A stretch of DNA of 64,000 nucleotides from Candidatus Poribacteria bacterium (GCA_965237835.1 OZ250160.1:2675397-2739396), one strand, 5' to 3'. Shown: positions 22 to 45,725, numbered from the stretch's first letter. The notes: generated by a model from the sequence alone, not told the origin. Program-made: numbers and translations.

Positions 22-720
22 TCACTTCATTTTGAGTCTTCCCCAGGTGGTTGCGAGTTTAGCTTGCGGAGCAACGGGACGTGGTTTTCCGGGTCCGCCA
101 TTAGGGATATTTTCACCAGTAATTTGAAAATCATCAAACCGTGCACGTGCGTTTCCAACGACGAGTCCTGCTTTTCCACCTTCTAATGGGTCATCATCAA
201 TTGCTTTAATAATGAAGTCATTAATTCGGAAGTCGAGTGAACCATCTTCAAAAACGGTGGCTTCCAGTTCATACCATGTATCTATTTCTGCAGTATATGC
301 GCGTACCACACTACCATTACCCTCCGCCCACCTTCCTATTGAGGCGATCTCATTAACGTAGTCAATTAAAAATGCATAACTACTATTTTCGTCACCTCTG
401 TCATGAAGTACCAGTCCGATGTGTGGCGATCCATTCCCGTCCTCAACCATCTTTGCACGGCAGGACACAGTATAGTATTCCCACGTGAATTCACCTGTTG
501 TCCAAAGACTAAAAAAGGGGTTTTCAAAGATTTCTCCAACAGCCTCACCATCATTTATCCACCATTTTTCAAACTGCCGATTAAGGTTAAAGATTTCCCA
601 TTCCCGGATGTCATTATCTTCAAAGTCGTCGCGCCATGTGCCTGCATAGGTAGACAGAGTTGTCAATACTATAGTAGACAAAAAGATGGTACTGATAAAA
701 ACTAATGTTAATTTTTTCAT
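22..720 (-). CDS. Secreted LamG-like jellyroll / DUF1080-family (3-keto-disaccharide hydrolase-like) protein
   Basis: The ORF track gives 22..900, but that N-extension overlaps the upstream gene. An internal ATG at 718-720 gives MKKLTLVFISTIFLSTIVLTTLSTYA, a classic signal peptide, with GGAG 8 nt upstream. The C-terminal GKAGLVVGNARARFDDFQITG resembles the DUF1080/LamG terminal strand. Confidence 0.55.
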   Translation of the reverse strand: MKKLTLVFISTIFLSTIVLTTLSTYAGTWRDDFEDNDIREWEIFNLNRQFEKWWINDGEAVGEIFENPFFSLWTTGEFTWEYYTVSCRAKMVEDGNGSPHIGLVLHDRGDENSSYAFLIDYVNEIASIGRWAEGNGSVVRAYTAEIDTWYELEATVFEDGSLDFRINDFIIKAIDDDPLEGGKAGLVVGNARARFDDFQITGENIPNGGPGKPRPVAPQAKLATTWGRLKMK

Positions 721-730
721 AATTTTCTCC

Positions 731-3700
731 TTAGGATTTGGTGACAATGCAATTTCCCTGTGAATCTGCATAAGGGCAAGAACAACAATGTTCAAGATTT
801 TTCTTATAGTTTCCCTGCTGCAGCGAAATAATTTTTTGTTGCCACTTTTCTGAAATCTCAAGTAAATCCGTACTGCTAAAACACATTTTTTCATAAGCAC
901 TTTGTTCAGTAAAGATATAATTGATTATCACAAGTGGTTCATTTGGATATACTTTGCTTAAAAGCAGACTGTATAGTTCCATTTCTGGTTTATAGTACTC
1001 TAAATCTCGTCCTTTAAAAGTTATGTAATTGAGTCCCTGCCATCCACCTACTTGATCTCTATAAAGTCTGTCTATTCTACCTGAGATGATGTGCCCATTG
1101 ATATTGGCGTGAATTTGATGGTTGGTATAGGAATCAGACGTAGGAACCAAGGTTTGTGCTAACTCAGTATTGCGAAAATTATTGATATGAGTGCGAATCA
1201 CACCTATTACATCCGACACAATTGAACTTTGCCTTATATCAGGAAAATTCCTCAATGTATTAGTAATAAGTCTCTCTGGATTGTCTAAATCTAACGGGTG
1301 TTTGATCTGAGCAAGAACATGGTGAATTAGCGTGTCCATTTCAGTTTCATCCCAATCCGATTGTCCTTCTTCAAGTGGTGGAATTCGTAGCACATGTTCC
1401 AACTGGTAACGTAGAGGGCATCGGGCGTAGTTAGCAAGTTCTAAGACAGAAAAGGATCCCCCGAAATCAGATGACTTTGGCTGAGAGAAAGGAAGTTTCG
1501 GAAAATCAACTGGAGTTGTACCACGAGATACTTTATCTGTATCATCAGTATCGTAAAGTTGTCTGATAATTGGGGTTTGTAGTTGGAAAGACTGGCTCAT
1601 AGTTGCATTATTTGAATACGTTTCCACCGAAACTGGTATACTCAAAGAATCGGCATCTTCACCAATTCCAAGGTATTCGTCCAGCCATTTTAACATATTT
1701 TCGGGATTACCGTACTCATTAAGTGACCCGGATAGAATAAGTCTATCTCTTGCGCGGGTTGCCCCAACATAAAACAAACGTTTCTTTTCGGCTTCGTCTT
1801 TAGCACTAGCATAATCTTTCATCAGAGAAACAATCTCTGGAGCAGTTTTTGTATAATTTTCCTCCGACTTATGTGGACTAAATCCTATTCCAAGTTCATC
1901 ATCAATAAATGGTTCTCTGCCATATTGCCCTTGTCGATTAAGTGAGGGAAGTATGACAACTGGGAATTGTTTCCCTTTGGCAGAATGGATTGTCATAATC
2001 TGAACTGCACCACTGCTATCCTCAATGGGAGCTTGTCCCTCCCGTGGTTCTTCAGTAATTAGGATGTCAAGAAAATCAATAAAATGAGTCAAGGTTTGCT
2101 GGTCCTCATCGCCATCAAAATTTCTGGCAAGTTCTAAGAGTTTCTGGTAGTTCGCCCATTTTTGCTGTCCCTGTTTACCTAATTTCAGTGTTCCGATCAT
2201 CCCCGTTTCATTAACAATGGTTAGAATGAGTTGGTTAATTGACATTCGATGGGCAATCTGCATGTGATGTTTTAATGTGACAATCGCTTTTGTAAGGTGT
2301 TCCGATGGAGATAGATATTTTTGAACCTTTTTCCAGAAACTGTCCTCCTTTTGCCGCGAAATTTCATACAACTCAGTGTCAGAAATCCCGAAGGCGGGAC
2401 CACGTAGAATACCGATAAGTGAGGTATCGTTTTCTTGTGGTGTGTTAAGAAAACTAAGGTAATTCCAAATATCGTAGATTTCTTGTCGTTGATAGAAACC
2501 AACACCACCTGTTGTGAGATAAGGGATACCAGCAGAAAGCAGCGCGTGTTCAATTTCAGGTAAGTGTCTTCTACTACGGATTAAGATTGAGATGTCACCA
2601 TATTCAATTGGTTTGGGAAATTTATCATCACCTTTGCCTTGCACCCATATCTCTTCATTGTTCGTTATCATTTTTTTGATGTGTTGTGCAATGAGTGTAT
2701 ATTCGTTTATTGGTTCATCACCTTTTTGTCCAAGCACGATTTCAACAGCACCGTTACCCTTGGAAGCGCGCGCTTGCGTAAGGGGTTCAAACTGCACTTC
2801 AAATTCATTTTCTGTACCATCTCCCATCAGACGTTTGAAAAAGTAATTCACAAATCCGACAGTATCGCGTAGGGAACGGAAATTTTCTTGGAGTTGGATA
2901 TTCTCACCTACATCCCCAATTTTTTGTTTTGTTTTTTCAAACACACGAACATCAGCCCCACGAAACCCGAAAATACTTTGTTTCGGGTCACCAACAATAA
3001 ATAGATTAGCATCTTGAAGGTCATTTGTGAGCAGCATCACTAACTCATACTGTAATTCATTTGTGTCCTGATATTCGTCTACCATGTAATACTTATATCG
3101 TTCCACCAATTTCTGGCGGATGCTATTGTTATTTTTAAGAAGGTCTCGTGTTTTTAGCTGCAGGTCTTCAAAATCAAGTTTGCCTTGAGAGAGTTTGTTA
3201 TTTTGGTAATCGTTGAGGATTCGGAGATAAAGTGTCAATAGGTAATCTGTTGTGCTAATAAGGAATTGGTCATCTGTTTCGTCATTTTCTTCCGTTAGCG
3301 GTGTGGCTGATTTAATATGTTGTGAAGCAGATGCCAGAAATTTGATTTCATTTGTTAAGCCGCTTATGTCAACTCCCGTTCCGATAAAAGCTGCTTTCGC
3401 AATACTACCACTTTTAGTTGTAATTAATTCAGCAATTTTCCTTCGTAATATGTGTCCTTCAACAGGATTAAAATTTGCTTTGAGTTTTAGACTTAACACA
3501 TTTACTTCTGCAGCATTTTTACCTTTTGCAATATCCAAAACAGGAAATAGGCTATTAATCCATTTATCCGTAATCTGTTGATTCCAGAATTCATATAACG
3601 TTTCGTTGTTTTGCTTCCTATAGGTTTGTGAAATGATTGCCTTGACAGCATCACGTTTCTCTACCATGGTGGAGAATAGTTCTGTTAATTTTTGACGATT

Positions 3701-5974: not shown

Positions 5975-6793
5975 TCATTTATCTACATCTTTAACACATC
6001 TGAAACCGATAGTGCTGCCAGAAGTTAGATGATACCATCGATCGGAGACGCGTAGATCGGTACTACTTCCACCCCAGCCGCCACCACGTAATATACGAAA
6101 GTTCTCATGCTTTGGTGCTGACACGTTTCCAAAACGAGGGTTGTTTACTGGTGACATCCTATAGAATTCACCATTATACGCATCAAAACACCATTCCCAG
6201 ACATTACCAGCCATATCGTATAAACCGAAACCGTTCGGTGAAAAACTTCCGACAGGAGATGTGCTTTTCCAAATGTCATTACCACCAATGCCACCGAAAT
6301 TGGCATCATCATGCGTGATAGTATCACCTGATGGATACTGCTTTCCAACAAAATTACCGCGTGCCGCATATTCCCATTCTGCCTCAGTAGGTAGCCTTTT
6401 GTTCGCCCAATTTGCATAAGCAACAGCATCGTTCCAATAAACATTAACCACAGGGTCATTAGGCTTATTGAATTTTGGGTCGTGCCATAGAGGTGGCGGC
6501 GAATGTCCCGTTGCTAACATAAACTGCTGGTAACGGGCATTTGTAACCTCGTGTATGTCAATATAAAATGCATCAATATAAACCTCATGAACTGGATACT
6601 CATCCGCATCTCCAGTGCCTTCAATTGCGTTTCCCATAAGAAAAGTACCGGAGGGTATAAGACGCATTTGTGCACTATCTATATTGGAAACTATTGTTTC
6701 AGCGAATTCCTCTGATGGGACACTGTTTTGAGAAGATTCAGAGCATGCACATAGGATGCATATTGAAAGAAGTAAAATTCCTGTGATACTCAC
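5975..6793 (-). CDS. Formylglycine-generating enzyme (FGE/SUMF1)-family domain lipoprotein
   Basis: Lipoprotein signal MSITGILLLSICILCAC. FGE-sulfatase family hallmarks are present: NVWEWC, RGGSW-like RGGGWGG, and the W/Y/G-rich core. Confidence 0.8.
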   Translation of the reverse strand: MSITGILLLSICILCACSESSQNSVPSEEFAETIVSNIDSAQMRLIPSGTFLMGNAIEGTGDADEYPVHEVYIDAFYIDIHEVTNARYQQFMLATGHSPPPLWHDPKFNKPNDPVVNVYWNDAVAYANWANKRLPTEAEWEYAARGNFVGKQYPSGDTITHDDANFGGIGGNDIWKSTSPVGSFSPNGFGLYDMAGNVWEWCFDAYNGEFYRMSPVNNPRFGNVSAPKHENFRILRGGGWGGSSTDLRVSDRWYHLTSGSTIGFRCVKDVDK

Positions 6794-7248
6794 GACGGCT
6801 AAAGCCGTGTGCTTCTTTTAGCACACAACCTCTCCTATGTGATTCCTGCTTCTACACAGTTTGCCACCCCGCCATGCTAACCGAAGTTACTGACTTATAT
6901 GTGGTCTTATATCTGTTCCACAGGCGTTTATTCTCTCGGTATATCCTACCGCGAGGTTAAAGATTAATTCGCACTTTGCATCTTAAATCTTTTTGATAAG
7001 ATAGCGTCTCGGGCGATGGCTTATCGCAACTTGTCCCTCTGGGGATCCGCCAAGTTGGACTATCTGCACACTTCCCATAACTACGGTGCCAGTGGACTGC
7101 CTTCTGCAGTGTGGGCTTCGGTTCGTCCTACGTTATTTCGCAGGACGCTACAGAGCCTTGCTTGTCTCAAATAATCTAAAGGACTTCTGCACGAGTTGAC
7201 ATGATTGGACCCGAAGTCTAAAGACTTGGGATTGTTAGTTAATTCCCT

Positions 7249-8679
7249 TCATACTAATTTTGAGGCAATCTCATCTGCGGTTTGGATCAACCTTTTCTGT
7301 TCTTTGTCAAAAAGAGTCCGAACATCAAACCACAATTGATCATTTTCAATCCGACCAATGATAGGTGTACTACCGCGTCTGAAATGTTCCGACAGTTTTT
7401 CTACAGAAATCGTTAGTGGCGTAAGCACAACAGCAATGCTTGGCAATGTTTCAACAGGAAGTGACCCGCTACCAATTTCTGATTGCGCTTCAGATATCTC
7501 AATTGAGACTAAGTCCTCGAAAATTACATTGAGTCTGTTTGAAATGTGATTTGCTGTAGTATTTAATTCATCAATAGACCGAGTGTAACGCTGGAGCATT
7601 GGGAGTAGGTCAGTGATAGCGTCCTGATTGAGGTAAGTTTGTAAGGTAGCAGACAACGCAGCTATAGTAAGTTTATCAACACGTAATGCACGCATGAGTG
7701 GATTCTTTCTGATTTGATGGACCCACGCAGCTTTTCCAACAATAATGCCTGCCTGTGGACCACCAAGTAACTTGTCACCGCTAAAGGTGACGATGTCCAC
7801 TCCACAATCAATCCTATCCGCAACAACAGGTTCGTTAGGAAGACCATATTGTGATAGATCAATCAACGCACCACTGCCTAAATCCTCCATCGTTGGGATA
7901 CCGCGTTCGACACCGAGTTCAGTCAATTCGTGTATCTCAGGTGTTGTGGTAAAACCCACAATCTTATAATTGCTTGGATGCACCTTTAAGAGAAGTGCAG
8001 TGTTGTCGTTGATCGCTTCAGCATAATCCCTAAGATGTGTCCGATTAGTTGTACCAACTTCTCTCAGAATCGCTCCGCTTGCTTCCATTACGTCAGGTAT
8101 ACGAAAGGCACCGCCAATTTCAATTAACTCGCCGCGTGATACGATGACCTCTTTTCCTCGCGCAACGGTTTGCAGCGCAATTAATACCGCAGCAGCGTTG
8201 TTATTAACGACTGTTGACGCCTCACATCCTGTCAATTGTTGAAGTAGAGGTTCAGTAATCCGATCCCGATGTCCACGTTTGCCGGTCTCAAGATCATATT
8301 CAAGGTTGACATAATTTTGTGCTGCTTTTTGAAGACTTTTACACGCAGAAGGAGATAACAAGGAACGACCAAGGTTTGTATGTGTTACGGTTCCAGTTGC
8401 ATTAACAACGGTGCGGAGCGGGGGACGGGTTTTTTCAGTAATTTGCTGAAGTACTAATTCAGCATATTCAGATGGTTCGGGGAGTTTCAGATCTGCTTCT
8501 CCACCCAGAATTTGGTCTCGAATATCAGAAACAACTGATCGTAGTGCCTCAATAACAAGTGATCGACCATAAGAATCTTGCAGCTCATGTATCTCAGGCA
8601 GCGATAGAAGTTTTTCTATCGCTGGAAGTTGTCGGAGTAGGTTAGTGTTGTCGTTCTGTGTCTGAGTTTTTATTGTCAA
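7249..8679 (-). CDS. selA: L-seryl-tRNA(Sec) selenium transferase SelA
   Basis: 476 aa PLP-dependent enzyme. The FSGDKLLGGPQAGIIVGK region carries the PLP lysine. Length and overall collinearity with bacterial SelA also fit. Confidence 0.85.
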   Translation of the reverse strand: MTIKTQTQNDNTNLLRQLPAIEKLLSLPEIHELQDSYGRSLVIEALRSVVSDIRDQILGGEADLKLPEPSEYAELVLQQITEKTRPPLRTVVNATGTVTHTNLGRSLLSPSACKSLQKAAQNYVNLEYDLETGKRGHRDRITEPLLQQLTGCEASTVVNNNAAAVLIALQTVARGKEVIVSRGELIEIGGAFRIPDVMEASGAILREVGTTNRTHLRDYAEAINDNTALLLKVHPSNYKIVGFTTTPEIHELTELGVERGIPTMEDLGSGALIDLSQYGLPNEPVVADRIDCGVDIVTFSGDKLLGGPQAGIIVGKAAWVHQIRKNPLMRALRVDKLTIAALSATLQTYLNQDAITDLLPMLQRYTRSIDELNTTANHISNRLNVIFEDLVSIEISEAQSEIGSGSLPVETLPSIAVVLTPLTISVEKLSEHFRRGSTPIIGRIENDQLWFDVRTLFDKEQKRLIQTADEIASKLV

Positions 8680-8879
8680 CTTCTTATTCCAGATTAAGTT
8701 AATGATAGTATGTAGCTTAAAAATACAGAATTTATTTTATTTTGCATTGTGATGAATTTTATCAAATAAACCTTCAGATGTCAAATGAAAAGTTTTTGTC
8801 ACCTTATGCATCAATTTAGGATGTATCGCTCATCGGGTAGAACGAAGCAACCCATAGATGTCAATTTAGCGGTCCTCAA

Positions 8880-9375
8880 GGGCTGGTAGGTGCGGTTTCT
8901 AACCGCACCATAAGCGTCAATTTAAGGAAAGAACTCGTTCGTAGTCGCGCAATTCATTGCGCCTCTTACATTCAAAGAAAAGCTTAGCCCCAACGCGGTA
9001 GGTGCGGTTTGTAACCGCACCGGATTCTGTGGAGTATGTGTGAGATAACGGTTTCCGCGAACGACTCGGTGCGGTTACAAACCGCACCTACCAGCCCTGG
9101 AGGATCACTAAATTGACGCATAAGGTGCGGTTAGAAACCGCACCTACCAGCCCTGGGAAATCGGGATTACCGATTTAAATACTTAAACTTCATCTAACCG
9201 CACCGGACTTATCCAAGGAACGGCAAGCATGTTTTGTAATAGCTTAAATTGACGCTAATGGTGCGGTTAGAAACCGCACCTACCGGCCCTGGTGAAATCG
9301 GGTAGTGTGCGTTTTCTGTGTATGACTCGGTTCGGTTAGGAAACCGAACCTACCGTTCTTGGTTTCTTAAATTGA
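8880..9375. repeat. Cluster of at least 8 copies of a dispersed palindromic element (family 1): AAATTGACGC-nTAn-GGTGCGGTT-n3-AACCGCACC-TACC, in both orientations
   Basis: Copies are visible near 8885, 8995, 9065, 9105, 9190, 9245 and 9330 (the last is a GGTTCGGTT variant). The cluster fills the divergent selA/lepA intergenic region. Further copies lie at about 15330, 27661, 27811, 40921, 41221, 43971 and 63770. Confidence 0.85.
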
Positions 9376-9475
9376 CACCTATAGATTTCGCTTCGCTATA
9401 CCCGACGGACAATAATATTTGTGACAAAACTTCACACCCGCCAACAATCTTTTTATGGCAAATTGACCAAAATTG

Positions 9476-9484
9476 TGGTATACT
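9476..9484 (+). promoter_or_regulatory. Extended -10 promoter box TGgTATACT immediately upstream of lepA
   Basis: TG-n-TATACT at 9476-9484. The ATG is at 9494 and no Shine-Dalgarno lies between them, so the predicted transcript would be leaderless or near-leaderless. A TTGACC at 9463 is only 10 nt upstream and is not a canonically spaced -35. Confidence 0.3.
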
Positions 9485-9493
9485 ATTTACATC

Positions 9494-11299
9494 ATGTCAA
9501 CCAAACTTCAAAACATACGAAATTTCTGTATTTTAGGGCATATTGACCACGGAAAAAGTACACTTAGTGATCGTCTCTTAGAACATACAAACACACTCGC
9601 TGAGAGAGAAATGCGCGAACAAGTGCTTGATTTGATGGACTTAGAACGCGAACGTGGTATCACCATCAAAGCGACTGCTGTTAAACTCCAGTATCGTGCG
9701 GAAGATAAAAAACTCTACGAACTCAATTTGATAGACACCCCCGGACATGTTGATTTTACCTACGAAGTTTCGCGCAGCCTTGCAGCTTGTGAAGGTGCGA
9801 TTTTAATTGTTGATGCAGCACAAGGTGTTGAGGCACAAACCTTGGCAAACGCGTATCTTGCAATAGAAAATGAACTTGAGATAATACCCGTTATCAACAA
9901 AATTGACCTACCAGCGGCGCAGCCTGATGAAGTCAAACGCCAGATAGAGGAGGTAGTCGGCATCCCTGCTGATGAGGCACTCCTTGTAAGCGCAAAGGTT
10001 GGTATCGGTATACCTGCTATCTTAGAGGCTATTGTCAATCGAATTCCAGCACCTATTGGAGAATCTGATGCTCCTTTAAAAGCACTTGTGCTGGATTCTG
10101 TTTACAATAACTATCGTGGTATCATTATATACACCCGTATATTTGATGGAAGTGTTGCACCGGGAGACAAGATTCAACTGATGCAGACGAAACGCTCCTA
10201 TGAAATTGAAGAAGTTGGCATTTTTACACCACAGATGCAACCTACCACCGAACTCAAGACAGGGACAGTAGGCTATCTCATCGCAGGCATTCGGGACATT
10301 GACAACGCAAAAATTGGTGATACAATCACACAACATAAACATCCTACTGCTATACCTCTCCAAGGCTATCAAGAAATTAAGCCGCTTGTATTTAGCGGAC
10401 TCTATCCTGCAGATACAAACCAATTTCATGCGATGCGAGAAGCTCTTGATAAACTTCGACTAAACGATTCTTCTTTCACATTTGAACCGGAGACTTCTGT
10501 CGCGCTTGGTTTCGGTTTTCGGTGTGGATTTTTAGGTTTACTTCACATGGAGATTATACATGAACGTCTTGAACGCGAATTTGGATTATCGCTTATTCGC
10601 ACTGCCCCAAGTGTCATGTATCGGGTTTATCTTAAATCGGGCGAACATGTGTTAGTGGACAATCCTGCACATCTACCGGAAGTAATAAATATTGAACGAA
10701 TCGAGGAACCGTATGTCAATATTGATATAATTGTGCCGCGTGAATATATCGGAAATGCAATGGAACTTTGTCAGAAGCGGCGGGGTATATATAAGCGCAT
10801 GAATCAATTGGATGCGACACGGGTGCAACTGCTTTACGAACTTCCGCTGAGTGAAATGCTTACCGACTTTTTTCCGAAACTCAAATCGCTTACTCGCGGT
10901 TACGGTTCGCTGGAATACGATATTGGTGAATATAGAACAGAGAAACTTGTAAAGTTAGATGTACTCCTAAATGGTAAACCTGTAGATGCGCTATCAACCA
11001 TTTTACCACGCGATATGGCTGAAGTTCGTGGGAAGAATTTAGTTAGCAAATTGAAAAAATTGATACCTCGGCAGATGTTTGAGATTCCTATTCAAGCTGC
11101 CATAGGGAACAAGGTTGTCGCACGTGAGTCTGTCAGAGCACTACGGAAAAATGTAACTGCAAAATGTTACGGTGGGGATATAACACGAAAACGGAAATTG
11201 TTAGAAAGACAGAAGGAAGGTAAGAAGAGACTCAAACAGATTGGTAGTGTTGATGTTCCACAAGAAGCATTTACAGCAATGCTTGCAACAGATGAATAA
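9494..11299 (+). CDS. lepA: Elongation factor 4 (LepA)
   Basis: [24 protein letters not shown], with G-domain motifs DTPGHVDF and NKID. The full-length LepA-specific C-terminal domain is present. The track ORF begins with TTG at 9473; the in-frame ATG at 9494 gives the canonical N-terminus. Confidence 0.95.
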
Positions 11300-11311
11300 T
11301 TCAAATTTACA

Positions 11312-11425
11312 GGGCAAGCTTTCATGATTATGTGGTCAACAGCGGACCAACCTGCAGAGTTGTGGGAAATCTGGAAGGTGATAGGTGACATTCGTTTTGA
11401 TCGAATCGGCAAACTAATCCGATAA
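11312..11425 (+). pseudogene. Duplicated 3' fragment of a signal peptidase I gene (last about 37 codons only)
   Basis: Translates to GQAFMIMWSTADQPAELWEIWKVIGDIRFDRIGKLIR*. This closely parallels the C-terminus of the downstream lepB (QAFMVYWSFENPDAKIWEVWKSIGGIRFNRIGKLIR). The DNA is also highly similar, e.g. GATCGAATCGGCAAACTAATCCG against AATCGAATCGGTAAACTGATCCG. Confidence 0.55.
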
Positions 11426-11482
11426 ATTTTAGAGTATACGATTCTCCACAGTTGTAATGAATACCTAATTGTAAGAAAGGAA

Positions 11483-12292
11483 ATGCCGCTATCTATTGCG
11501 GTTTTCAAATTAATGACTACTGATATCCAATTATCGAAATGGCAGAGATTTCGAAAAACGGTCGCCTGGGAATATACCCAAGTAATTGTTGTTGCACTTA
11601 TCCTTGTTTTTGGGTTTATTCGCCCTTTTGTTGTTGAGGCATTCAAAATTCCATCCGGTTCAATGGAGGATACACTCCTAATCGGTGATAGGATTCTGGT
11701 ATGCAAGTTTATCTACGGATTCAAAATTCCCGGCACGGGTATTAGAGTCTTTGATTTTCATAAGCCTGCCCGAGGAGATGTTTTCGTTTTTATTCCACCA
11801 CATGAAGAGCAGCGAAATTTCATTAAACGTATTGTCGCAATAGAAGGGGATACAGTTCACACTGAAGGTAAAACACTTTATGTAAACGGTCAAGTCGTCA
11901 ACGATAACGGTTACGCCAAGTATGCGGGAAACCGTTTTGTCAGACGAAGTAATTTTCCCCCTTTCCGAAAAATGGAAGAATATATGAGGGGTAATGAACT
12001 ATATGATGATTACACCTTGACAGGTAGTCAGTATAAACGCAAATTCCCCGATGGTAAACCGTTTATTGTTCCAAAAGGATATGTCTTTGCAATGGGTGAT
12101 AACAGAGATCATAGTAGTGATAGTCGAACGTGGGGACCTGTAAATGTAGATAGTATCAAGGGGCAAGCCTTTATGGTTTATTGGTCTTTTGAGAATCCGG
12201 ATGCGAAAATATGGGAGGTTTGGAAATCAATAGGCGGTATACGATTCAATCGAATCGGTAAACTGATCCGTACACAAAATGGACTCAACTGA
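11483..12292 (+). CDS. lepB: Signal peptidase I (LepB)
   Basis: Catalytic boxes GSMEDTL (Ser), KRIVAIEGDTV (Lys) and GDNRDHSSDSRTWGPV are present, along with an N-terminal transmembrane segment. The true start may be the internal MTTDIQ at about 11513. Confidence 0.9.
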   Translation: MPLSIAVFKLMTTDIQLSKWQRFRKTVAWEYTQVIVVALILVFGFIRPFVVEAFKIPSGSMEDTLLIGDRILVCKFIYGFKIPGTGIRVFDFHKPARGDVFVFIPPHEEQRNFIKRIVAIEGDTVHTEGKTLYVNGQVVNDNGYAKYAGNRFVRRSNFPPFRKMEEYMRGNELYDDYTLTGSQYKRKFPDGKPFIVPKGYVFAMGDNRDHSSDSRTWGPVNVDSIKGQAFMVYWSFENPDAKIWEVWKSIGGIRFNRIGKLIRTQNGLN

Positions 12293-14226
12293 TGCACCAA
12301 GATAGACGACACCTTATCATCGGTACTGCCGGACATGTTGACCATGGCAAAACTGCACTGGTTGGCACGCTCACAGGCATTGAAACAGACAGACTCAAGG
12401 AGGAACGGGAACGCGGTTTATCCATTGAGTTAGGATTCGCTTATTTTGACCTGCCTGATAACTCACGTGCAGGGATTGTTGACGTACCAGGACACGAGAA
12501 ATTCATTCGCAACATGTTGTCTGGTGCTTATGGAATGGATATTGTCCTTTTTGTTGTTGATGCCAAAGAAGGGGTGCAAGAACAGACACTTGAACACTTA
12601 GCAATTTTAGATTTACTCGCCATCTCAAACGGCATACTTGTGATGACGAAGTCAGATTTAGCAACCCGTGAAGAATTGGAAGAAGCAACAGAAATGACGC
12701 AAGAAATGCTTGTTGGCACATCGCTTGAAGGCATTCCTTCGGTCAGTGTCTCATCTATCACTGGTGAAGGGATTGATACCTTAAAACAGATGATTGTTGA
12801 ACAAGTAGGCATTGTTACAGAGGCACAAGAACATGATGGAATTCCACGGTTGTATGTTGATCGTGTTTTCACAGTTCAAGGTTTTGGAGTCGTTGTTACA
12901 GGAACACTCATCGGCGGTTCAGTAAATAGAGATCAGAGGATGGTAATTTTACCACAAGGGGATGTTGTCAGAGTGCGAGGCATACAAGTACATAACGAAC
13001 CTGCGAATGTCGCACAAGCAGGACAACGCACCGCGTTAAATCTGTCTGGAACCACTGCTCATGGCATTCAGCGCGGTGATGTGCTATGTCCTATTGAGTT
13101 CTCAAATGTTACTGATAATATAAACGTATCGTTACAGGTATTATCCTCATTTCCGAGAATGCTTGAACATTGGGGACGTTTTCGCGTGTATCTCGGCACA
13201 CGTGAATTATTTTGTCGGTTGATTTTATTAGTTGACGAAGCAATTCTGCCCGGTGACAGAGTCCAAGTCCAACTACGGTTGGAGCAACCTATTTTGACCT
13301 TTAGAGGCGATAGAATCATTTTACGCGATTTCTCCGCACAACACACTGTCGGTGGCGGTGAAGTAATTAACCCATTCGCACCAAAACACAAACGTTTTAC
13401 CCAAGAAACCATTACCATTTTAGCAAAGTGGGAAGAAGCAGGCGACACGCAGGTGGTAAACGCAGTGCTTGAAAATAGTGAGACTCTCTGCGTAGAAGAA
13501 TCTTTCCTCTATTACTATATGCCGTATTCACAAGCCGAGGTTAGAAACATTTTGGACACCTTGGAATCTGAAGAAAAAATCGTGCGATGGGGTAAATCGG
13601 GCAGGACACCACTTATTTCTGATGCAGCACGCACAGCAGACGCTACAAACAAACTAACAGCAGCATTGTCAGGATTTCACGAAAAAGAACCACTCCTTTC
13701 AGGGCAGAATGCATCACAACTGTGCCGTGATCTTGCACTAAATGAGATAGATTTTGAGAAGATTACAGATCACCTAATTAAATCAAAGGAACTTGTGAAG
13801 GATGGGAATTTACTCCGATTGTCTTCACATGAAATAAAATTTTCTGAAGAGGAGTCAACTGCTAAAGAAACACTTGAAAAATTATTTTTGGAAGCAGGAA
13901 TCAACACACCCGGGCTTTCCGAACTGGATACATTGCTGCCAGAGTATACACCCCAAGTGATTGAATCCACGTTTTTTGCGTTATTGAATCTTGGACAGTT
14001 TATAAAAACAGCCGATAATTTCTTTATCCACAGAGAAATCTATGAAAAAACAAAAGAATTATTAACCAATTATCTTCAAAAAAATGATACAATATCGGTG
14101 GCAGAATTTCGGGAACTGGCGAAAACATCTCGAAAATATGCGGTACCGTTCCTTGAGTATTGTGACAGTCAAAATGTAACAATTCGAGATGGAAACGTCC
14201 GCAGATTGTCATCAAGGAAAAATTAA
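12292..14226 (+). CDS. selB: Selenocysteine-specific translation elongation factor SelB
   Basis: GTPase motifs GHVDHGKT, DVPGHEKF and TKSDL are present. An EF-Tu-like domain II and a long C-terminal winged-helix extension of about 270 aa, typical of the SECIS-binding region, follow. The ATG at 12292 overlaps the lepB TGA at 12290-12292 (TGATG). Confidence 0.9.
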   Translation: MHQDRRHLIIGTAGHVDHGKTALVGTLTGIETDRLKEERERGLSIELGFAYFDLPDNSRAGIVDVPGHEKFIRNMLSGAYGMDIVLFVVDAKEGVQEQTLEHLAILDLLAISNGILVMTKSDLATREELEEATEMTQEMLVGTSLEGIPSVSVSSITGEGIDTLKQMIVEQVGIVTEAQEHDGIPRLYVDRVFTVQGFGVVVTGTLIGGSVNRDQRMVILPQGDVVRVRGIQVHNEPANVAQAGQRTALNLSGTTAHGIQRGDVLCPIEFSNVTDNINVSLQVLSSFPRMLEHWGRFRVYLGTRELFCRLILLVDEAILPGDRVQVQLRLEQPILTFRGDRIILRDFSAQHTVGGGEVINPFAPKHKRFTQETITILAKWEEAGDTQVVNAVLENSETLCVEESFLYYYMPYSQAEVRNILDTLESEEKIVRWGKSGRTPLISDAARTADATNKLTAALSGFHEKEPLLSGQNASQLCRDLALNEIDFEKITDHLIKSKELVKDGNLLRLSSHEIKFSEEESTAKETLEKLFLEAGINTPGLSELDTLLPEYTPQVIESTFFALLNLGQFIKTADNFFIHREIYEKTKELLTNYLQKNDTISVAEFRELAKTSRKYAVPFLEYCDSQNVTIRDGNVRRLSSRKN

Positions 14227-14254
14227 AAACTATCTAAATTCGCTTCTACTTTCT

Positions 14255-14348
14255 GGGGGAGGATAGGGTCCGGTGGCCCTACCGGTCTTCAAAACCGGCT
14301 TGTCCATGCAAGTGGATAGGTGGGTTCGACTCCCACCCTCTCCCGCCA
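14255..14348 (+). tRNA. selC: tRNA-Sec (selC), anticodon UCA, with CCA encoded
   Basis: GGGGGAGG-AT-AGGGTC-CGGT-GGCCCT-A-CCGGT-CTTCAAA-ACCGG-(22-nt variable arm)-GTGGG-TTCGACT-CCCAC-CCTCTCCC-G-CCA. It has an 8-bp acceptor stem, a 6-bp D stem with a 4-nt loop, a 5-bp T stem and a long variable arm. This is the bacterial 8/5 tRNA-Sec architecture. Confidence 0.9.
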
Positions 14349-14375
14349 TATAAATGGATTTCCATCCATTGGTTA

Positions 14376-15290
14376 ATGAAAAGGATTATGATCAAATCCC
14401 TTCCGATTCACACCCCAAATTCAGCACAACGTAGACATCCATCATGGATAAAGGCACGGATACCTGGCGGTGGCAACTACGTTGAGCTTAAAAAATTAAT
14501 GCGAGATCTTCAACTTCACACTGTCTGTGAAGAAGCGCGGTGTCCCAACATCGGTGAATGCTGGAACAGTCGCACGGCTACTTTTATGATATTAGGAGAT
14601 GTCTGCACGCGGCGATGCATGTTTTGTGCTGTGAAGAAAGGCAAACCTGGTGGTATCGTGGATACAGATGAACCACGAAGACTTGGCGAGGCAGTTGCCC
14701 ACTTGAAACTAAACCACGTTGTCATTACTTCCGTTAACCGCGATGATCTACCTGATGGCGGTGCGGGTGTGTTCGCAGACTGTATCACCGAAGCACGGAA
14801 ACAGCGTCCCAGTTGTACTATAGAAGTTCTCATTCCTGATCTGGAGGGTAATTGGGACGCGCTTAAGGTTATCGTCCAAGCGGGACCAGAAGTGCTTAAC
14901 CATAATACTGAAACAGTTCAACGTCTCTACCGTCGCGCTCGCCCATACGCAAATTACCAACAAACTCTCTCACTTCTCAAAAAGGGCAAGAAACTGAATC
15001 CAGACATGCTTACGAAGTCAGGACTTATGGTAGGGTTAGGTGAAACGGTAATTGAACTCTTGGAAACAATGCAAGACATACGGAATACAGGCTGCGATAT
15101 TCTAACTATTGGACAATATCTCTCTCCTTCCCCACGCCACCTACCGATTCAACGATACTATACCCCCGATGAGTTTGATGAACTTAAAGAAGCTGGTCTT
15201 GAGATGGGATTCCGGCATGTAGAATCTGGTCCTTTAGTACGAAGTTCATATCATGCAGGTGAACAGGTAAATTCATCCAGTTTATCGTAG
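14376..15290 (+). CDS. lipA: Lipoyl synthase LipA
   Basis: Radical-SAM and auxiliary cluster motifs CEEARCPNIGECW and CTRRCMFCAV are present. The protein is collinear with E. coli LipA. Confidence 0.9.
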   Translation: MKRIMIKSLPIHTPNSAQRRHPSWIKARIPGGGNYVELKKLMRDLQLHTVCEEARCPNIGECWNSRTATFMILGDVCTRRCMFCAVKKGKPGGIVDTDEPRRLGEAVAHLKLNHVVITSVNRDDLPDGGAGVFADCITEARKQRPSCTIEVLIPDLEGNWDALKVIVQAGPEVLNHNTETVQRLYRRARPYANYQQTLSLLKKGKKLNPDMLTKSGLMVGLGETVIELLETMQDIRNTGCDILTIGQYLSPSPRHLPIQRYYTPDEFDELKEAGLEMGFRHVESGPLVRSSYHAGEQVNSSSLS

Positions 15291-15534
15291 AGCATAGTTT
15301 GTGTTGAACAACGTGAAACCCCATAAGTGTCAATTCAGCGATCCGCCAGTCACGGTAGGTTCGGTTTCCTAACCAAACCATAGTTGTCAATTTGGTGTTT
15401 CCTTAGATTTCGTGTTGTTCCATTAGATTTTTATGCGAATTTTTTCAGGAATGTGATATACTAAATGGAAACACATACTTCTATGCCGAAAGGTATCCAA
15501 ATCCACATTTGCCAAATATAACAACAAACAAGTC

Positions 15535-15631
15535 TAATACCAAATTAACTTGATTAGAGACGTCTTCTGATAAAGTCAGCATTGCGAGGCACGGGGACCT
15601 CGCGCTACGAATCGGGTTAATTTAGTATAAT
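15535..15631. mobile_element. MITE-like element (family 2), about 97 bp. Terminal inverted repeats TAATACCAAATTAAC / GTTAATTTAGTATAAT with internal hairpin GCGAGGCACGGGGACCTCGC
   Basis: Near-identical copies lie at 44029-44125, 45674-45765 and 57181-57275. The right terminus ends in TAGTATAAT and sits 12 nt upstream of the dapB ATG. Confidence 0.8.
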
Positions 15632-15643
15632 AAGGAAAAAACA

Positions 15644-16453
15644 ATGATTAATGTCATAATTAATGGCGCATGCGGGCGTATGGGAAGACTAATTACACAA
15701 GGCGTTTCGCAACAAAATGATATGGAACTTGTCGGAGCAATTGAGTTTTCATCTCATCCGGAAATCGGAAATGATGCAGGTGTTGTTGCAGGTGTCGGTG
15801 AACTTGGTGTAGCGATCACAAGTGAACTCAACGATGTTATCGCAAGTGCTGATGTTATAATTGAATTCTCAAAACCCGATGTGACATTGCAGCATCTGCG
15901 ACAAGTTGTAAATGCAGATAAAGCTATGATAATTGCAACAACTGGATTTAGCACTGACGAACTAAACGAAGTCCAAGAACTCACATCAAAGATTCGATGT
16001 GTTATGGCACCAAACATGAGTCTCGGTGTTAACGTCATGATTAAAGCCCTTGAATTAGTCGCCAAATCCCTTGGGGATGACTACGATGTTGAAGTGATAG
16101 AAGCACATCACAACCATAAAGCGGATTCACCAAGTGGGACTGCCCTTCGATTAGCCGAGACTGTTGCCACAGCACTTGGACGAGATTTGGATGAGGTGGG
16201 TGTCTATGGTCGGCACGGGATCGTTGGCGCACGTCCACAGAAACAGATCGGGATACACGCAATTCGTGGTGGGGACATCGCTGGTGACCACACTGTCATG
16301 TTTGCAACTGAAGGCGAAACACTTAGTGTAGTTCATCGCGCACATAGTCCTGAAGCATTTGCGAAGGGCGCGATCCGAGCCGCGAGATGGGTAGTGAATG
16401 CTTCCCGAGGTTTACACGATGTTAGCGAAGTCCTTTTTGGAAATGACGAATAG
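15644..16453 (+). CDS. dapB: 4-hydroxy-tetrahydrodipicolinate reductase DapB
   Basis: N-terminal NAD(P)-binding motif INGACGRMG. The central EAHHNHKADSPSGTA (E(L/A)HHxxKxDxPSGTA) is the DapB signature. Confidence 0.9.
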   Translation: MINVIINGACGRMGRLITQGVSQQNDMELVGAIEFSSHPEIGNDAGVVAGVGELGVAITSELNDVIASADVIIEFSKPDVTLQHLRQVVNADKAMIIATTGFSTDELNEVQELTSKIRCVMAPNMSLGVNVMIKALELVAKSLGDDYDVEVIEAHHNHKADSPSGTALRLAETVATALGRDLDEVGVYGRHGIVGARPQKQIGIHAIRGGDIAGDHTVMFATEGETLSVVHRAHSPEAFAKGAIRAARWVVNASRGLHDVSEVLFGNDE

Positions 16454-18497
16454 ATGGTCATATCATATACTTTCATTCCTATTCCTTTTGATTCTTGTTA
16501 CGATTTTCTCGTTCCTCGGTTGTTCAAACACACCAAAAAATATGAGAGGAGTGTGGAAAACCGTACTGGAAGGTGATTGGAGTGCACATCTTTACGGCGT
16601 CCATTTTATTTCTGAAACGCACGGATGGGCAGTTGGAAATTCGGTTGATGTTTTCTCAAGTCATTCTTTTAGTGATTTTGATGAAACAGATCCATCTTTT
16701 ACTGAAGGCGCAGAGAGCATTATCCTCCATACACAAGATGGTGGTAAAAATTGGAATAGACAAAGTAGTGGGATTTTTGGAAAACCGTTGCGAGATGTGT
16801 ATTTTCGCAACGCATCCGAAGGGTGGTGTATAGGAGATGGAGGGGTTGTCGGACACACAGCTGATGGCGGGAAGACATGGCAGCAGATTGAAATAGGCAC
16901 ACAGAATGATTTGCAAAGTCTATATTTGGGAAAAACTATAGGTTGGATTGTTGGAGATTGGGGAACACTGCTCAAAACAACTGATGGTGGCAAAACATTT
17001 AAAGAAGACGACGGCAGTTTCTTCGGAAAAAAATCATTAAAAGACATTGATTTTGTTGACAATTCCCACGGATGGATCATTACTTACAGCACACCGAATA
17101 GTAGTGAAAACTCAGGATATATCTACCATACAAAGGATGGTGGAGAATCGTGGGAAGAACAGTTCTCGACTAAATCCAAGTTGTTTAGTTTACGTTTCGT
17201 TGATAGGATGACAGGATGGGTGGTAGGAGATAAACGCAGCATATACGTTACGAATGATGGGGGTAAAACGTGGGAATTTGTTACTGATGGAAGTAACCAA
17301 CGCCATAAGGAAAAATACGGACAACCCGATTATCTTGGTAACGAACCCTTACATACGTTCATACTCTATGATGTTGACTTCGTAGATAATCAGCACGGGT
17401 GGATTGTTGGGGATTTGGGTGTTGTACTACATACAGACTCAGGTATCAAGAAAAATGGTAGTAGTGCTTGGAAACATCAGCGCGGAGGACCTCGTTTTCA
17501 TAACAGTGCTGACAATCTCTTATTAGCCGTTGATTTTGTGTCCAAAAATCTGGGTTGGGCTGTTGGTGAAAACGGCACGATTCTACATACGCGAAACGCT
17601 GGCGTTACGTGGGAAGCGCAATCAAGTCCGACACACCTACTTTATGATATATGTATAACTGCGCAAAATAAAGGGTATGTTGTTGGGGACCGTGGCGCGA
17701 TTCTACAAACACACGATGGTGGAACAAATTGGCAGCCACAGGATAGTCGCACCGCAGAATGTTTCGGAGGAACACATTTTGTATCACCTCAAAAGGGGTG
17801 GGCAGTCGCTGAAGCAGGTGTTATTCTGCGGACAACAAATGGTGGTGCAGTTTGGCAGCAACAATCCTCTAATACGAAGCAAGTTCTATTCGCTGTTTTC
17901 TTTATAGATGAACAAACCGGATGGTGTGTGGGGAATGCGGGTGAAATTGTCCATACTTCCGATGGTGGCAAGACTTGGACAAGGCAACAGAGTGGTGTCA
18001 CTTATAATCTATTTGATATTCACTTTACGTCAAAAATGGAAGGATGGGTTGTTGGGTTATTTGGAACATTATTGTACACAGATGATGGCGGTAATCGGTG
18101 GCAACTTTCAACATTAAGTCGTCAACTTACCAAAATGGATAGAAACAAGAATATCTGGTTAAACGCTGTCTATTTTGTTTCTGCTAAAATGGGGTGGGTT
18201 GTCGGTGAAGATGGGTTTATATTCAACACGAAGAATGGCGGAAAAAGTTGGTCTCGTCAAGAGAGTCACACCCAAAACTTCCTTTACGATGTATTCTTTA
18301 TATCAGAAGCGGAAGGATGGGTGGTTGGGAAAGATGGACTTGTGCTGCACACGAAGGATAGTGGTGAAAACTGGAGACCTCAGCGAACCGATACTCGAAC
18401 AGATCTAACTGCAATCCACATGAGTAGCCCCCACAGTGGTTTAGTGGCAGGACAAGGCGGAACGATTTTAAAATATGAGGTAGTGGAATCTGAATAA
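16443..18497 (+). CDS. BNR/Asp-box repeat beta-propeller lipoprotein (sialidase-like / Ycf48-like repeats)
   Basis: More than 12 repeats of the pattern S/TxDGGKTW are present. The lipoprotein signal is ...FLGCSN. The preferred start ATG at 16443 overlaps the dapB 3' end by 11 nt; the track ORF begins at 16398 inside dapB. Confidence 0.75.
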   Translation: MTNRWSYHILSFLFLLILVTIFSFLGCSNTPKNMRGVWKTVLEGDWSAHLYGVHFISETHGWAVGNSVDVFSSHSFSDFDETDPSFTEGAESIILHTQDGGKNWNRQSSGIFGKPLRDVYFRNASEGWCIGDGGVVGHTADGGKTWQQIEIGTQNDLQSLYLGKTIGWIVGDWGTLLKTTDGGKTFKEDDGSFFGKKSLKDIDFVDNSHGWIITYSTPNSSENSGYIYHTKDGGESWEEQFSTKSKLFSLRFVDRMTGWVVGDKRSIYVTNDGGKTWEFVTDGSNQRHKEKYGQPDYLGNEPLHTFILYDVDFVDNQHGWIVGDLGVVLHTDSGIKKNGSSAWKHQRGGPRFHNSADNLLLAVDFVSKNLGWAVGENGTILHTRNAGVTWEAQSSPTHLLYDICITAQNKGYVVGDRGAILQTHDGGTNWQPQDSRTAECFGGTHFVSPQKGWAVAEAGVILRTTNGGAVWQQQSSNTKQVLFAVFFIDEQTGWCVGNAGEIVHTSDGGKTWTRQQSGVTYNLFDIHFTSKMEGWVVGLFGTLLYTDDGGNRWQLSTLSRQLTKMDRNKNIWLNAVYFVSAKMGWVVGEDGFIFNTKNGGKSWSRQESHTQNFLYDVFFISEAEGWVVGKDGLVLHTKDSGENWRPQRTDTRTDLTAIHMSSPHSGLVAGQGGTILKYEVVESE

Positions 18498-25764: not shown

Positions 25765-27465
25765 TTAAGGGGTAAAAACCTCAAGAGCTTTTGCGGTAAT
25801 ACAACCCGCAATCGTACTCGCCACTTTTCCTTGAAAATCTGCTCTAATTATTGCTACTGCTTCTTCTATAGCCAGGTTTTCCTGACGGAATTTCCGCCAG
25901 AGATCGATACTCAGTCCATAAAGATAGTCATCAATAAGGGCTTCATCTCCAGCATCAAGCCTGGCTAAAAAGGCTGCAGATTCGGCTTCGTATTCACTTA
26001 TACACTGTGCAGAAAGTGCAGTATAGGTAGCATTGCTTGTGCCTGATTCATTTTTAAGTATAGATATCCGAAAATTGTTTGATGGATCAACTTCCATTGC
26101 CACTATCTTATCGCTTAAATAGTTTGCCATTCCACCATAATGTTCATCAATATACTTTTTTGCGATCAAGGTTGATGTAGGCAAATTACCTCGATCAGAT
26201 GTAGTACTCATATCTATAGTTATAAGAAATATCTGATCCAAAATAGTAAACGTTATTTCAGCATCTATTGCCACATAAGACCTTACAATTGACACGGTGA
26301 GAGTGATTGGACCTGGACTTCCCGGCGTTTTTGATGGTGTAAAAGTAAATTCAACGTAGCCGCTTGAATCTGCTCTTGTTGGGGACATGCCCGGTGTAGT
26401 CATATTATTGATATAGCCTATTCCAGATGGAACATTAATCGCCATTCTTGCACCTGGATACGTTTGCAGTATGACTAAATTCGATGTTTCACCAACTCGA
26501 ACAGTCTGATTGTTCCCAGAAACAACTTGCACATTACCGGTTACCTGTTGCTGTTGCTGTTGCGCCGCAATAAGCGGTTCTGATTCTTCCTCAACAAAAG
26601 TAAGCGTTGATTGTTGCAGCGAGTTAGGATCCTCCTGTTCAGTCTGTGTATCCTGCTGTTGCTGCGAGTTGGGATCCTCCTGTTCAGTCTGTGTATCCTG
26701 CTGTTGCTGCGAGTTGGGATCCTCCTGTTCAGTCTGTGTATCCTGCTGTTGCTGCGAGTTGGGATCCTCCTGTTCAGTCTGTGTATCCTGCTGTTGCTGC
26801 GAGTTAGGATCCTCCTGTTCAGTCTGTGTATCCCACTGTTGTTGCGAGTTAGGATCCTGCTGTTCAGTCTGTGTATTCTGCTGTTCAGTCTGAGTATCCT
26901 GCTGTTTAGTCTGAGTATCCTGCTGTTTAGTCTGAGTATCCTGCTGTTTAGTCTGAGTATTCTGCTGTTCAGTCTGAGTATTCTGCTGTTCAGTCTGAGT
27001 ATTCTTCTGTTTAGTCTGAGTATCCTGCTGTTCAGTCTGAGTATTCTTCTGTTTAGTCTGAGTATCCTGCTGTTCAGTCTGAGTATTCTGCTGTCCAGTC
27101 TGAGTATTCTGCTGTCCAGTCTGAGTATTCTGCTGTTCAGTCTGAGTATTCTGCTGTTCAGTTTGTGTATTCTGCTGTTCAGTTTGTGTATTCTGCTGTC
27201 CAGTCTGTATATTCTGCTGTCCAGTCTGTGCAGGCTGTGTGTTAGGATCCGGTTTACCATCGTGAGAGACAACTTCTACAACATTAGCTAATTTACCTCC
27301 GACAAGGATAATATTGCCGGATTCATCTTTCTGATAGACAACTTCTGCATCGTCAAGCACCTCAGCATTTATCACCTTATCAACACTCAAAAGCTGAGTG
27401 AAAGACTTATCACAACTCATGATTAAACATAGTAACAATATCCACAAAACATTGATTTTATACAT
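25765..27465 (-). CDS. Putative lipoprotein with Gln/Thr-rich tandem-repeat region (QTEQQNT heptads and QQQDTQTEQEDPNSQ 15-mers) and a roughly 300-aa non-repetitive C-terminal domain
   Basis: Signal/lipobox MYKINVLWILLLCLIMSC. About 16 heptad repeats and about 5.5 15-aa repeats follow. No recognisable catalytic motifs. Confidence 0.7.
   Translation of the reverse strand: MYKINVLWILLLCLIMSCDKSFTQLLSVDKVINAEVLDDAEVVYQKDESGNIILVGGKLANVVEVVSHDGKPDPNTQPAQTGQQNIQTGQQNTQTEQQNTQTEQQNTQTEQQNTQTGQQNTQTGQQNTQTEQQDTQTKQKNTQTEQQDTQTKQKNTQTEQQNTQTEQQNTQTKQQDTQTKQQDTQTKQQDTQTEQQNTQTEQQDPNSQQQWDTQTEQEDPNSQQQQDTQTEQEDPNSQQQQDTQTEQEDPNSQQQQDTQTEQEDPNSQQQQDTQTEQEDPNSLQQSTLTFVEEESEPLIAAQQQQQQVTGNVQVVSGNNQTVRVGETSNLVILQTYPGARMAINVPSGIGYINNMTTPGMSPTRADSSGYVEFTFTPSKTPGSPGPITLTVSIVRSYVAIDAEITFTILDQIFLITIDMSTTSDRGNLPTSTLIAKKYIDEHYGGMANYLSDKIVAMEVDPSNNFRISILKNESGTSNATYTALSAQCISEYEAESAAFLARLDAGDEALIDDYLYGLSIDLWRKFRQENLAIEEAVAIIRADFQGKVASTIAGCITAKALEVFTP
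26620..27225. repeat. Intragenic tandem DNA repeats: about 5.5 x 45 bp (26620-26868) followed by about 16 x 21 bp (26869-27225)
   Basis: The 21-bp unit CTGTTCAGTCTGAGTATTCTG recurs with C/T variants. The 45-bp unit is GTTGCTGCGAGTTGGGATCCTCCTGTTCAGTCTGTGTATCCTGCT. The overlapping antisense ORFs at 26510-27291 are artefacts of the repeats. Confidence 0.9.
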
Positions 27466-45163: not shown

Positions 45164-45344
45164 CATATCCGAGACATAACCATAGGTACACGGCACACCA
45201 GAGAAATTGCAAAGATCCGTAAATCTTTTACCGGGCGGTTTTTGAAGGAGCATCTTGCGTAATGGAAATTCGTTAATTCAAGGTTGGGAAAATGTCTGCT
45301 TTTTATTCAGAGTAGAAACCACGGGCGTTTTTAAAGGCAAAAAT

Positions 45345-45725
45345 ATGAAAAATGTACTGATTATCACCTTATTGATAGTCTCGATTCTGTTTACTCTAAG
45401 CGGATTTGCACAAGACTACATGAAATGGGGAATCCCTGAAAACGCCACACTTCGTCTTGGAAAAGGAAGAATATACGACCTAAAGCATTCACCAAATGGT
45501 AACCTGATAGCAGTGGCAAGTTCTATCGGAGTCTGGATATATAATGCTCATTCTGGCAAAGAAATTAGGGTGCTTCAAAAGCACACCGATTGGGTTAGTT
45601 CATTAGCGTTCTCACCCAACGGCAAAATTCTTGCAAGTGGGAGTCAAGACGGTACGATTTTGATTTGGGACTTATACCCAATTAACGGGATTGTAGTGCG
45701 AGGTCCCCGTGCCTTGCAATGCTGA
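45345..45725 (+). pseudogene. WD40-repeat gene truncated by MITE insertion (signal peptide + about 2 WD repeats remain)
   Basis: The ORF is MKNVLIITLLIVSILFTLSGFAQ...LAFSPNGKILASGSQDGTILIWDL. It then runs into the family-2 MITE, which begins at 45674. The last 16 codons and the stop are MITE-encoded, and no WD40 continuation exists downstream. Confidence 0.6.

Follow-up and report, generated by a model that had tools for sequence, protein, structure and literature searches.

Selenocysteine-decoding genes of Candidatus Poribacteria: selB and tRNA-Sec in a clade-specific order between lepB and lipA

Introduction

In Escherichia coli the selenocysteine (Sec) machinery consists of a selAB operon with selC and selD located separately, and lepA–lepB is an operon, as in many other bacteria. 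Elsewhere selA–selB operons have been described in which selD is rarely contiguous (PMC1273633), as have selCAB operons and a tRNA-Sec gene nested inside selB (PMC8124441); in mycobacteria, selC is located directly upstream of selA–selB and is co-transcribed with them (PMC13449736). Co-transcription of tRNA and mRNA has been reported or proposed for such packed tRNA-Sec genes (PMC13449736, PMC8124441). The present text deals with the Sec genes of a 64,000-nucleotide (nt) stretch, hereafter the window, from Candidatus Poribacteria bacterium (GCA_965237835.1 OZ250160.1:2675397-2739396): selA, and the string lepA–lepB–selB–selC–lipA, in which selC is the gene of tRNA-Sec. The phylum Poribacteria is uncultured; its members are known mainly as symbionts of sponges.

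The region carries the ordinary, intact and standard bacterial Sec-decoding machinery of Candidatus Poribacteria. Taken as a whole it is, with good probability, a canonical Sec toolkit in a lineage-inherited, clade-specific gene order, likely read as one transcript from lepA to lipA. The components agree with those of E. coli, also in their domains; SelB corresponds from end to end, and the tRNA has the 8/5 geometry. The differences are that selA and selB of the window are not in one operon, that selC is found 28 nt after selB and not at a distance, and that selB overlaps lepB and does not follow selA. As in the E. coli lepA–lepB operon, lepA is followed by a same-strand gene of signal peptidase I, but the window has in addition a 37-codon remnant (lepB1), and the string continues into selB, tRNA-Sec and lipA. 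With the mycobacterial selC–selA–selB, the selCAB and the nested forms the window shares a tRNA-Sec gene tens of nucleotides from a same-strand protein gene; unlike in those forms, it is placed after selB and before the unrelated lipA. An earlier note on this DNA had called the layout unusual, which holds in so far as it differs from selAB with a distant selC in E. coli, but tRNA-Sec beside sel protein genes is not unusual. The same note took selB and selC to be inserted into lepA–lepB; the pair is in fact located downstream of lepB and before lipA. A link of lepB with selB was not found in the literature searched.

Results and Discussion

Gene set and gene order

Protein identities were assigned to the open reading frames (ORFs) of the window with NCBIfam equivalog models at their curated cut-offs and with Pfam domains. 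The features of the region are as follows (aa, amino acids; positions counted from the first letter of the window):

7249–8679, minus: selA, L-seryl-tRNA(Sec) selenium transferase; 476 aa, TTG start; TIGR00474, 610.3 bits (cut-off 267.9)
8756–8784, minus: candidate sigma-70-like selA promoter, TTGACA-17-TAAAAT with TG; 11 of 12 consensus positions
8850–9390, both orientations: cluster of palindromic repeats like repetitive extragenic palindromic elements, core GGTGCGGTTnnnAACCGCACC; fills the selA–lepA spacer
9455–9484, plus: promoter-like site with extended -10 TGgTATACT; 9 of 12 consensus positions plus TG; inferred only
9494–11299, plus: lepA, elongation factor 4 (EF4); 601 aa; TIGR01393, 976.5 bits (cut-off 533.9)
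11312–11425, plus: lepB1, remnant of a tandem signal-peptidase gene; last ~37 codons; 33-codon open ORF at 11324–11425
11483–12292, plus: lepB, signal peptidase I; 269 aa, TGA stop; TIGR02227, 152 bits (cut-off 47)
12290–12294, plus: TGATG stop/start overlap of lepB and selB; 1 nt shared
12292–14226, plus: selB, selenocysteine-specific elongation factor; 644 aa; TIGR00475, 351.6 bits (cut-off 242.25)
14255–14348, plus: selC, tRNA-Sec, anticodon UCA; 94 nt, encoded CCA; ARAGORN and Rfam RF01852
14376–15290, plus: lipA, lipoyl synthase; 304 aa; TIGR00510, 391 bits (cut-off 310)

All genes from lepA to lipA are on the same strand with gaps of -1 to 57 nt. The lepB stop TGA (12290–12292) and the selB start ATG (12292–12294) share one base; 28 nt separate the selB stop (14224–14226) from the tRNA start (14255), and 27 nt the tRNA end (14348) from the lipA ATG (14376). 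The selA gene is divergent from lepA and 3.6 kb away from selB. The gene and tRNA identities proposed in the earlier note (selA, lepA, lepB, selB, selC, lipA) were right, all proteins, SelA (TIGR00474) and SelB (TIGR00475) included, scoring above the curated family cut-offs; the TGATG overlap and the 28-nt selB–tRNA spacer were found where it had placed them.

SelA, SelB and tRNA-Sec

SelA: Pfam domains SelA (527 bits) and, N-terminal, Se-cys_synth_N (43 bits); comparison with E. coli SelA (8UZW) gave 441 bits. The SGDKLLGGPQAG motif is conserved and the stretch FSGDKLLGGPQAGIIVG is identical in the alignment to 8UZW; this motif with its stretch is taken here to be the pyridoxal-phosphate-lysine site of E. 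coli SelA.

SelB: the TIGR00475 match is near full length (residues 8–639 on profile positions 1–579 of 581), and the alignment to E. coli SelB (5LZB) spans residues 8–637 of the window protein; GTPase and barrel domains (Pfam): GTP_EFTU, 122.9 bits, GTP_EFTU_D2, 36.5 bits, Beta-barrel_SelB, 60 bits; the GHVDHGKT motif is seen in the alignment to 4ZU9. The SelB-specific C-terminal winged-helix domains, with which the earlier note had let its assignment stand or fall, are present: SelB-wing_2, 30 bits (residues 457–510), and SelB-wing_3, 66.4 bits (residues 593–639); the last 51 residues are alignable to A. aeolicus SelB. The winged helices are the predicted part for binding of the selenocysteine insertion sequence (SECIS) element.

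tRNA-Sec: ARAGORN found a single tRNA in the whole window, tRNA-SeC with anticodon TCA at 14255–14348, as the earlier note had expected. The class is borne out by Rfam RF01852 as well (78.1 bits, gathering score 47; full model 1–91 covered). In the minimum-free-energy structure the acceptor stem comprises 8 bp, the T stem 5 bp and the long variable arm 8 bp; the discriminator is G, and CCA is encoded. An Rfam scan of 6500–16500 at permissive threshold returned tRNA-Sec alone, besides a spurious sub-threshold mir-H3 match on the palindromic repeats.

In the expected pathway, SelA would convert Ser-tRNA(Sec) to Sec-tRNA(Sec), and SelB would bring the latter to those UGA codons that precede a SECIS element; the adaptor would be tRNA-Sec.

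For comparison, 83 loci were analysed with the window proteins (tblastn) and with ARAGORN; 80 of them came from related species-representative genomes, drawn from the closest relatives by protein search (best 80–120). Of the 80 loci checked, with SelB identities down to 55%, L073 has an in-frame stop in selB; the frame is open in the other 79. The tRNA-Sec genes of 78 of the 83 loci comprise 31 distinct sequences, and their stems are kept by changes on both sides (for instance, anticodon stem CCGG/CCGG to CTGG/CCAG; by eye). All three, selA, selB and tRNA-Sec, look intact and under selection.

The selD gene and selenoprotein genes were sought in the window itself. NCBIfam and Pfam scans of the window ORFs with 120 aa or more gave no SelD/AIRS-type protein. 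A scan of all frames of the window for TGA-split ORFs gave 15 candidates; the strongest were rejected as normal gene ends or overlaps with unrelated genes, the remaining ones, not scored against Pfam, have short open arms, and none is credible. The earlier statement that the window has no selD or selenoprotein gene was thus upheld by both kinds of scan; these genes would lie elsewhere in the 5.9-Mb genome. The same absence, together with the pseudogene remnant lepB1 in the same gene string, is what would be expected of a decaying, non-functional Sec trait, that is, of genes left over in a lineage without selenoproteins. Such decay is highly improbable in view of the intact selA, selB and tRNA-Sec (all above curated thresholds), the open SelB frames, the two-sided changes in the tRNA stems and the conserved SGDKLLGGPQAG motif of SelA. 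Poribacteria are, moreover, listed among the phyla with Sec-containing group 4 [NiFeSe] hydrogenases (PMC13582414), in agreement with an active Sec trait of the phylum.

Conservation across Poribacteria

The exact SelB sequence of the window occurs on a 5.93-Mb metagenome contig (ENA ERZ26167216) and on two short contigs; its named homologues all belong to Candidatus Poribacteria. After three copies of the window's own genome had been left out of the 59- and 56-locus counts below, lepB was found immediately upstream of selB in 59 other species-level loci, with an intervening gene in none. The lepB–selB gap in these relatives ranges from -14 to 237 nt: overlap, 28 loci; 0–40 nt, 15 loci; >40 nt, 16 loci; the -1 overlap of the window is shared by 20 other loci at species level, and 7 have a -4 overlap. 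tRNA-Sec follows selB directly in all 56 lepB-linked loci with enough downstream sequence (median gap 37.5 nt). Over all fetched loci it is located just 3' of selB in 78 of 83, in all Poribacteria clades sampled. The lipA gene is within 70 nt of the tRNA in 43 of the 56 loci; in three loci the two are split by 0.7–3.6 kb. The order lepB–selB–tRNA-Sec–lipA persists down to 75% SelB identity. Since the order lepB–selB–tRNA-Sec recurs in 59 further species-level genomes, it is not due to chance.

At lower identity the neighbours change. Loci with SelB 64–68% identical mostly have selA–selB–tRNA-Sec with no lepB or lipA nearby; those with SelB 55–60% identical have other upstream neighbours, e.g., a two-component system. 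The sister clade (e.g., L058–L072) is like the window in that selB is followed by an orthologous tRNA-Sec within 29–275 nt, which differs from the window tRNA at 6–8 positions; unlike in the window, selA is directly upstream of selB (gap -8 to 86 nt), and lepA, lepB and lipA are not nearby.

One large Poribacteria clade thus has a complete-looking Sec apparatus in a fixed order that was not found described in the papers searched. The order may be used as a synteny marker for the clade and is a further natural case of a tRNA gene between protein-coding genes. The understanding of Sec decoding is unchanged: the parts are canonical, and bacteria are known to differ widely in the order of their sel genes. 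The point of some interest is a possible regulatory meaning of the lepB–selB coupling and of the tRNA–lipA junction.

One such meaning would be an adaptive functional coupling of the lepA/lepB module with selB–selC–lipA, kept by selection; examples are co-regulation of the GTPases EF4 and SelB, selenoprotein synthesis tied to export, and tRNA-Sec processing that sets lipA expression. The order is kept to 75% SelB identity in a neighbourhood otherwise open to insertions, and there is a model in mycobacteria with tRNA-Sec directly before selA and regulating selAB (PMC13449736). Against this, the neighbours of selB–selC in the sister and deeper Poribacteria lineages are selA, a two-component system or other genes; the spacers are freely variable, with no conserved structure; and the lepB–selB link is missing from the literature searched. 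We also know of no biochemical connection of signal peptidase or lipoyl synthase with Sec insertion, and this counts against coupling too. Selected coupling is, on balance, improbable.

Two of the loci have insertions at the 3' side of the tRNA. A DNA methylase fused to an HNH nuclease is located between tRNA-Sec and lipA in L020 (9597–12608) and L044 (4533–5912); L020 has an AAA_21/AAA_15 ATPase there as well. In E. coli, selC is an insertion site of islands; use of the Poribacteria tRNA-Sec as an island integration site was considered and dropped, the ORFs inserted in L020 and L044 matching no integrase family.

Origin of the gene order

A SelB tree was built by neighbour-joining and rooted at the midpoint. 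The lepB-linked loci all fall in one clade, which is sister to the selA–selB–tRNA-Sec clade. Because they form a single clade, the simplest reading is that one old, ancestral rearrangement moved selB–tRNA-Sec from behind selA to behind lepB and was inherited thereafter. The pair selB–tRNA-Sec would have parted from selA in the ancestor of a large clade of Poribacteria and would then have landed between lepB and lipA. Recent horizontal transfer of selB–selC was found to be unsupported: no foreign base composition was seen in selB–selC, the G+C content being 0.38–0.44 across the segment and 0.42 in the window.

Transcription and translation of the lepA–lipA string

Promoter-like and terminator-like sites were located by consensus scans and compared with shuffled sequence; the promoter types of Poribacteria may differ from the consensus used. 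Promoter-like sites in the region are at the shuffle level (24 found, 20.3 expected), and so are terminator-like sites (6 found, 7.6 expected); no intergenic terminator-like site was found on the plus strand of 9494–15290. The junction segments (lepB–selB, selB–tRNA, tRNA–lipA) fold like their shuffles (z -0.6 to +0.8), and junction folding gave no SECIS-like hairpin at the selB start of the kind that autoregulates selAB in E. coli. Recoding of the lepB UGA was therefore ruled out as a conserved feature, and an autoregulatory SECIS-like hairpin where lepB stops and selB starts was rejected as well (junction z +0.4 to +0.8; no hairpin after the stop; four relatives use TAATG in place of TGATG). 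As neither a convincing terminator nor a promoter or hairpin is seen at the junctions, control of Sec decoding through the lepA operon is plausible, and one transcript from lepA to lipA is the reading favoured by the sequence.

A motif AGGA is found a few bases before the lepB ATG, and inspection by eye shows no Shine–Dalgarno-like motif ahead of selB; this combination fits ribosomes that terminate at lepB and start again at the overlapping AUG. The long lepB–selB spacers of the relatives consist of short palindromic or tandem repeats, with one consensus promoter match in 13 spacers. The tight lepB–selB junction therefore seems to be the basic state, the gaps being later insertions. In one subclade (L029, L031, L041, L035, L042, L043, L047, L048, L079) the repeat-built spacers are 75–237 nt long; one type of their repeats resembles agtccccctgataagggggatttagggggtttcttcc, another agttatcagttatcggttatcagttgtcggttaag.

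With a single transcript, transcription from upstream of lepA would run through the lepB1 remnant, lepB, selB, tRNA-Sec and lipA; ribosomes ending at the lepB UGA would restart at the overlapping selB AUG; RNase P and 3' trimming would cut out tRNA-Sec and so part the selB and lipA messages; selA would be expressed from its own divergent promoter, for which the candidate site is located 77 nt upstream of the selA start (a consensus match only). Excision of tRNA-Sec from a lepA-to-lipA transcript by the general tRNA-processing enzymes is proposed by analogy with mycobacterial selC–selAB (PMC13449736).

Alternatively, the genes would be adjacent without shared control: selB, tRNA-Sec and lipA would each be transcribed from a promoter of its own, located in a short spacer or within the 3' part of the gene before it, and the tight packing with its 1-nt overlap would reflect neutral genome compaction. 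In 31 of the 59 relatives lepB and selB are separated by a 5–237-nt spacer without overlap, a promoter-like site matching 10 of 12 consensus positions is present inside selB (13992–14019), and the neighbours of selB–selC vary between Poribacteria clades, so that the pair works in several contexts. On the other hand, lepB–selB is never split by a gene in 59 species, whereas lepA–lepB is split in nine and tRNA–lipA in three; the long spacers are repeat insertions almost devoid of consensus promoters; promoter-like sites do not exceed chance; and selB has no apparent Shine–Dalgarno-like motif. Separate promoters are for these reasons regarded as unlikely, though the least far-fetched of the alternatives.

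Several points weigh against the inherited toolkit read as one transcript, or limit it. Operon structure, translational coupling and tRNA excision are all inferred from sequence. The stop/start overlap is found in only 28 of the 59 relatives, so that coupling is not essential to the clade; a simple scan could have missed promoters in the lepB–selB spacers, which reach 237 nt; and the site at 13992–14019, in the 3' end of selB, could serve the tRNA and lipA as a separate promoter. The basis for the direction of the rearrangement is the midpoint-rooted neighbour-joining tree, together with published work in which selA–selB is a common order; an active selenoproteome in the window genome is assumed.

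It is doubtful, to a high degree, that the lepB–selB–tRNA-Sec–lipA string is a selected regulatory design in which the lepA-operon promoter and re-initiation at the lepB stop set the Sec capacity and excision of tRNA-Sec makes the 5' end of lipA. If it were, selenoprotein synthesis, protein export and lipoylation would be linked in the lepB-linked Poribacteria clade, and tRNA-Sec excision would set the stability or the translation of the lipA message.

selA and the repeat-rich selA–lepA spacer

The earlier note had the Sec machinery arranged around lepA–lepB. As far as lepB–selB–tRNA-Sec is concerned, this arrangement is widely kept; selA, however, is found beside lepA, in divergent orientation, only in the window genome and its closest relative, L004 (99% SelB identity). 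In the other 58 lepB-linked loci no selA was present in the fetched sequence on the 5' side of selB (up to 7 kb). The position of selA next to lepA is recent and local; a further rearrangement, in the window genome and L004, would have brought it there.

The selA–lepA spacer is 815 nt long and contains five exact GGTGCGGTTnnnAACCGCACC cores (0 expected), which are all the core matches of the window; the repeat units are ~48–50 nt, and repeat families D1–D5 and I1–I13 were found in the spacer. A few other Poribacteria loci also have GGTGCGGTTnnnAACCGCACC copies, exact or variant, some of them in lepB–selB spacers. No Rfam family matched the GGTGCGGTTnnnAACCGCACC repeats above threshold. In L004 the corresponding spacer is 2.3 kb and carries a YhgA-like transposase (L004 2452–3654, minus; PF04754, 99.5 bits); the selA–lepA spacer, with its repeats in the window and the transposase in L004, looks like a recombination breakpoint or rearrangement hot spot.

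lepA, lepB, the lepB1 remnant and lipA

lepA: the LepA-specific C-terminal domain LepA_C is present (Pfam, 165 bits). The likely start is ATG 9494 and not the mechanical TTG 9473, and the resulting 601 aa match the gene call in the source contig. The ATG is 10 nt past the extended -10-like TGgTATACT; the lepA message may thus be nearly leaderless.

lepB: Pfam Peptidase_S26; the motifs SGSM, KRIVA and GDNRDHSSDSR are present, presumably the Ser/Lys catalytic boxes of signal peptidase I. The 33-codon ORF between lepA and lepB translates to MIMWSTADQPAELWEIWKVIGDIRFDRIGKLIR, which aligns to LepB residues 227–263 (tblastn). Among the 59 relatives, lepB1 is full-length in 24, a partial remnant in 4 and missing in 31, from which it follows that this paralogue was lost repeatedly; two tandem lepB genes are the ancestral state of the lepB-linked Poribacteria clade.

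The nine related genomes with split lepA–lepB have 0.5–3.4 kb of extra sequence there, and lepA–lepB is not an inviolate unit in the lepB-linked clade. ORFs between the two genes were noted at 3801–5248 in L005, 2908–5908 in L007 and 2784–5770 in L021; in the two loci checked (L005 and L007) the inserted ORFs code for right-handed beta-helix (NosD-like) proteins.

lipA: the cysteine motifs CX4CX5C and CX3CX2C are present; the start is perhaps the second ATG (14388), the relatives aligning from residue 1 or residue 5.

Other genes of the window

An ordinary cluster is found at 54148–60755 (plus): lipid A acyltransferase, lptC, lptA, lptB, rpoN and hpf; valS is located at 60995–63652 and metH at 36529–40230 (minus). 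ORFs without a Pfam match at E ≤ 1e-5: 22–900 (minus, 292 aa), 25765–27465 (minus, 566 aa), 28517–31936 (plus, 1139 aa) and 44279–45163 (plus, 294 aa). Downstream of the 294-aa ORF, in a different frame, comes a 156-aa WD40 fragment (45255–45725); the two may be parts of a split gene.

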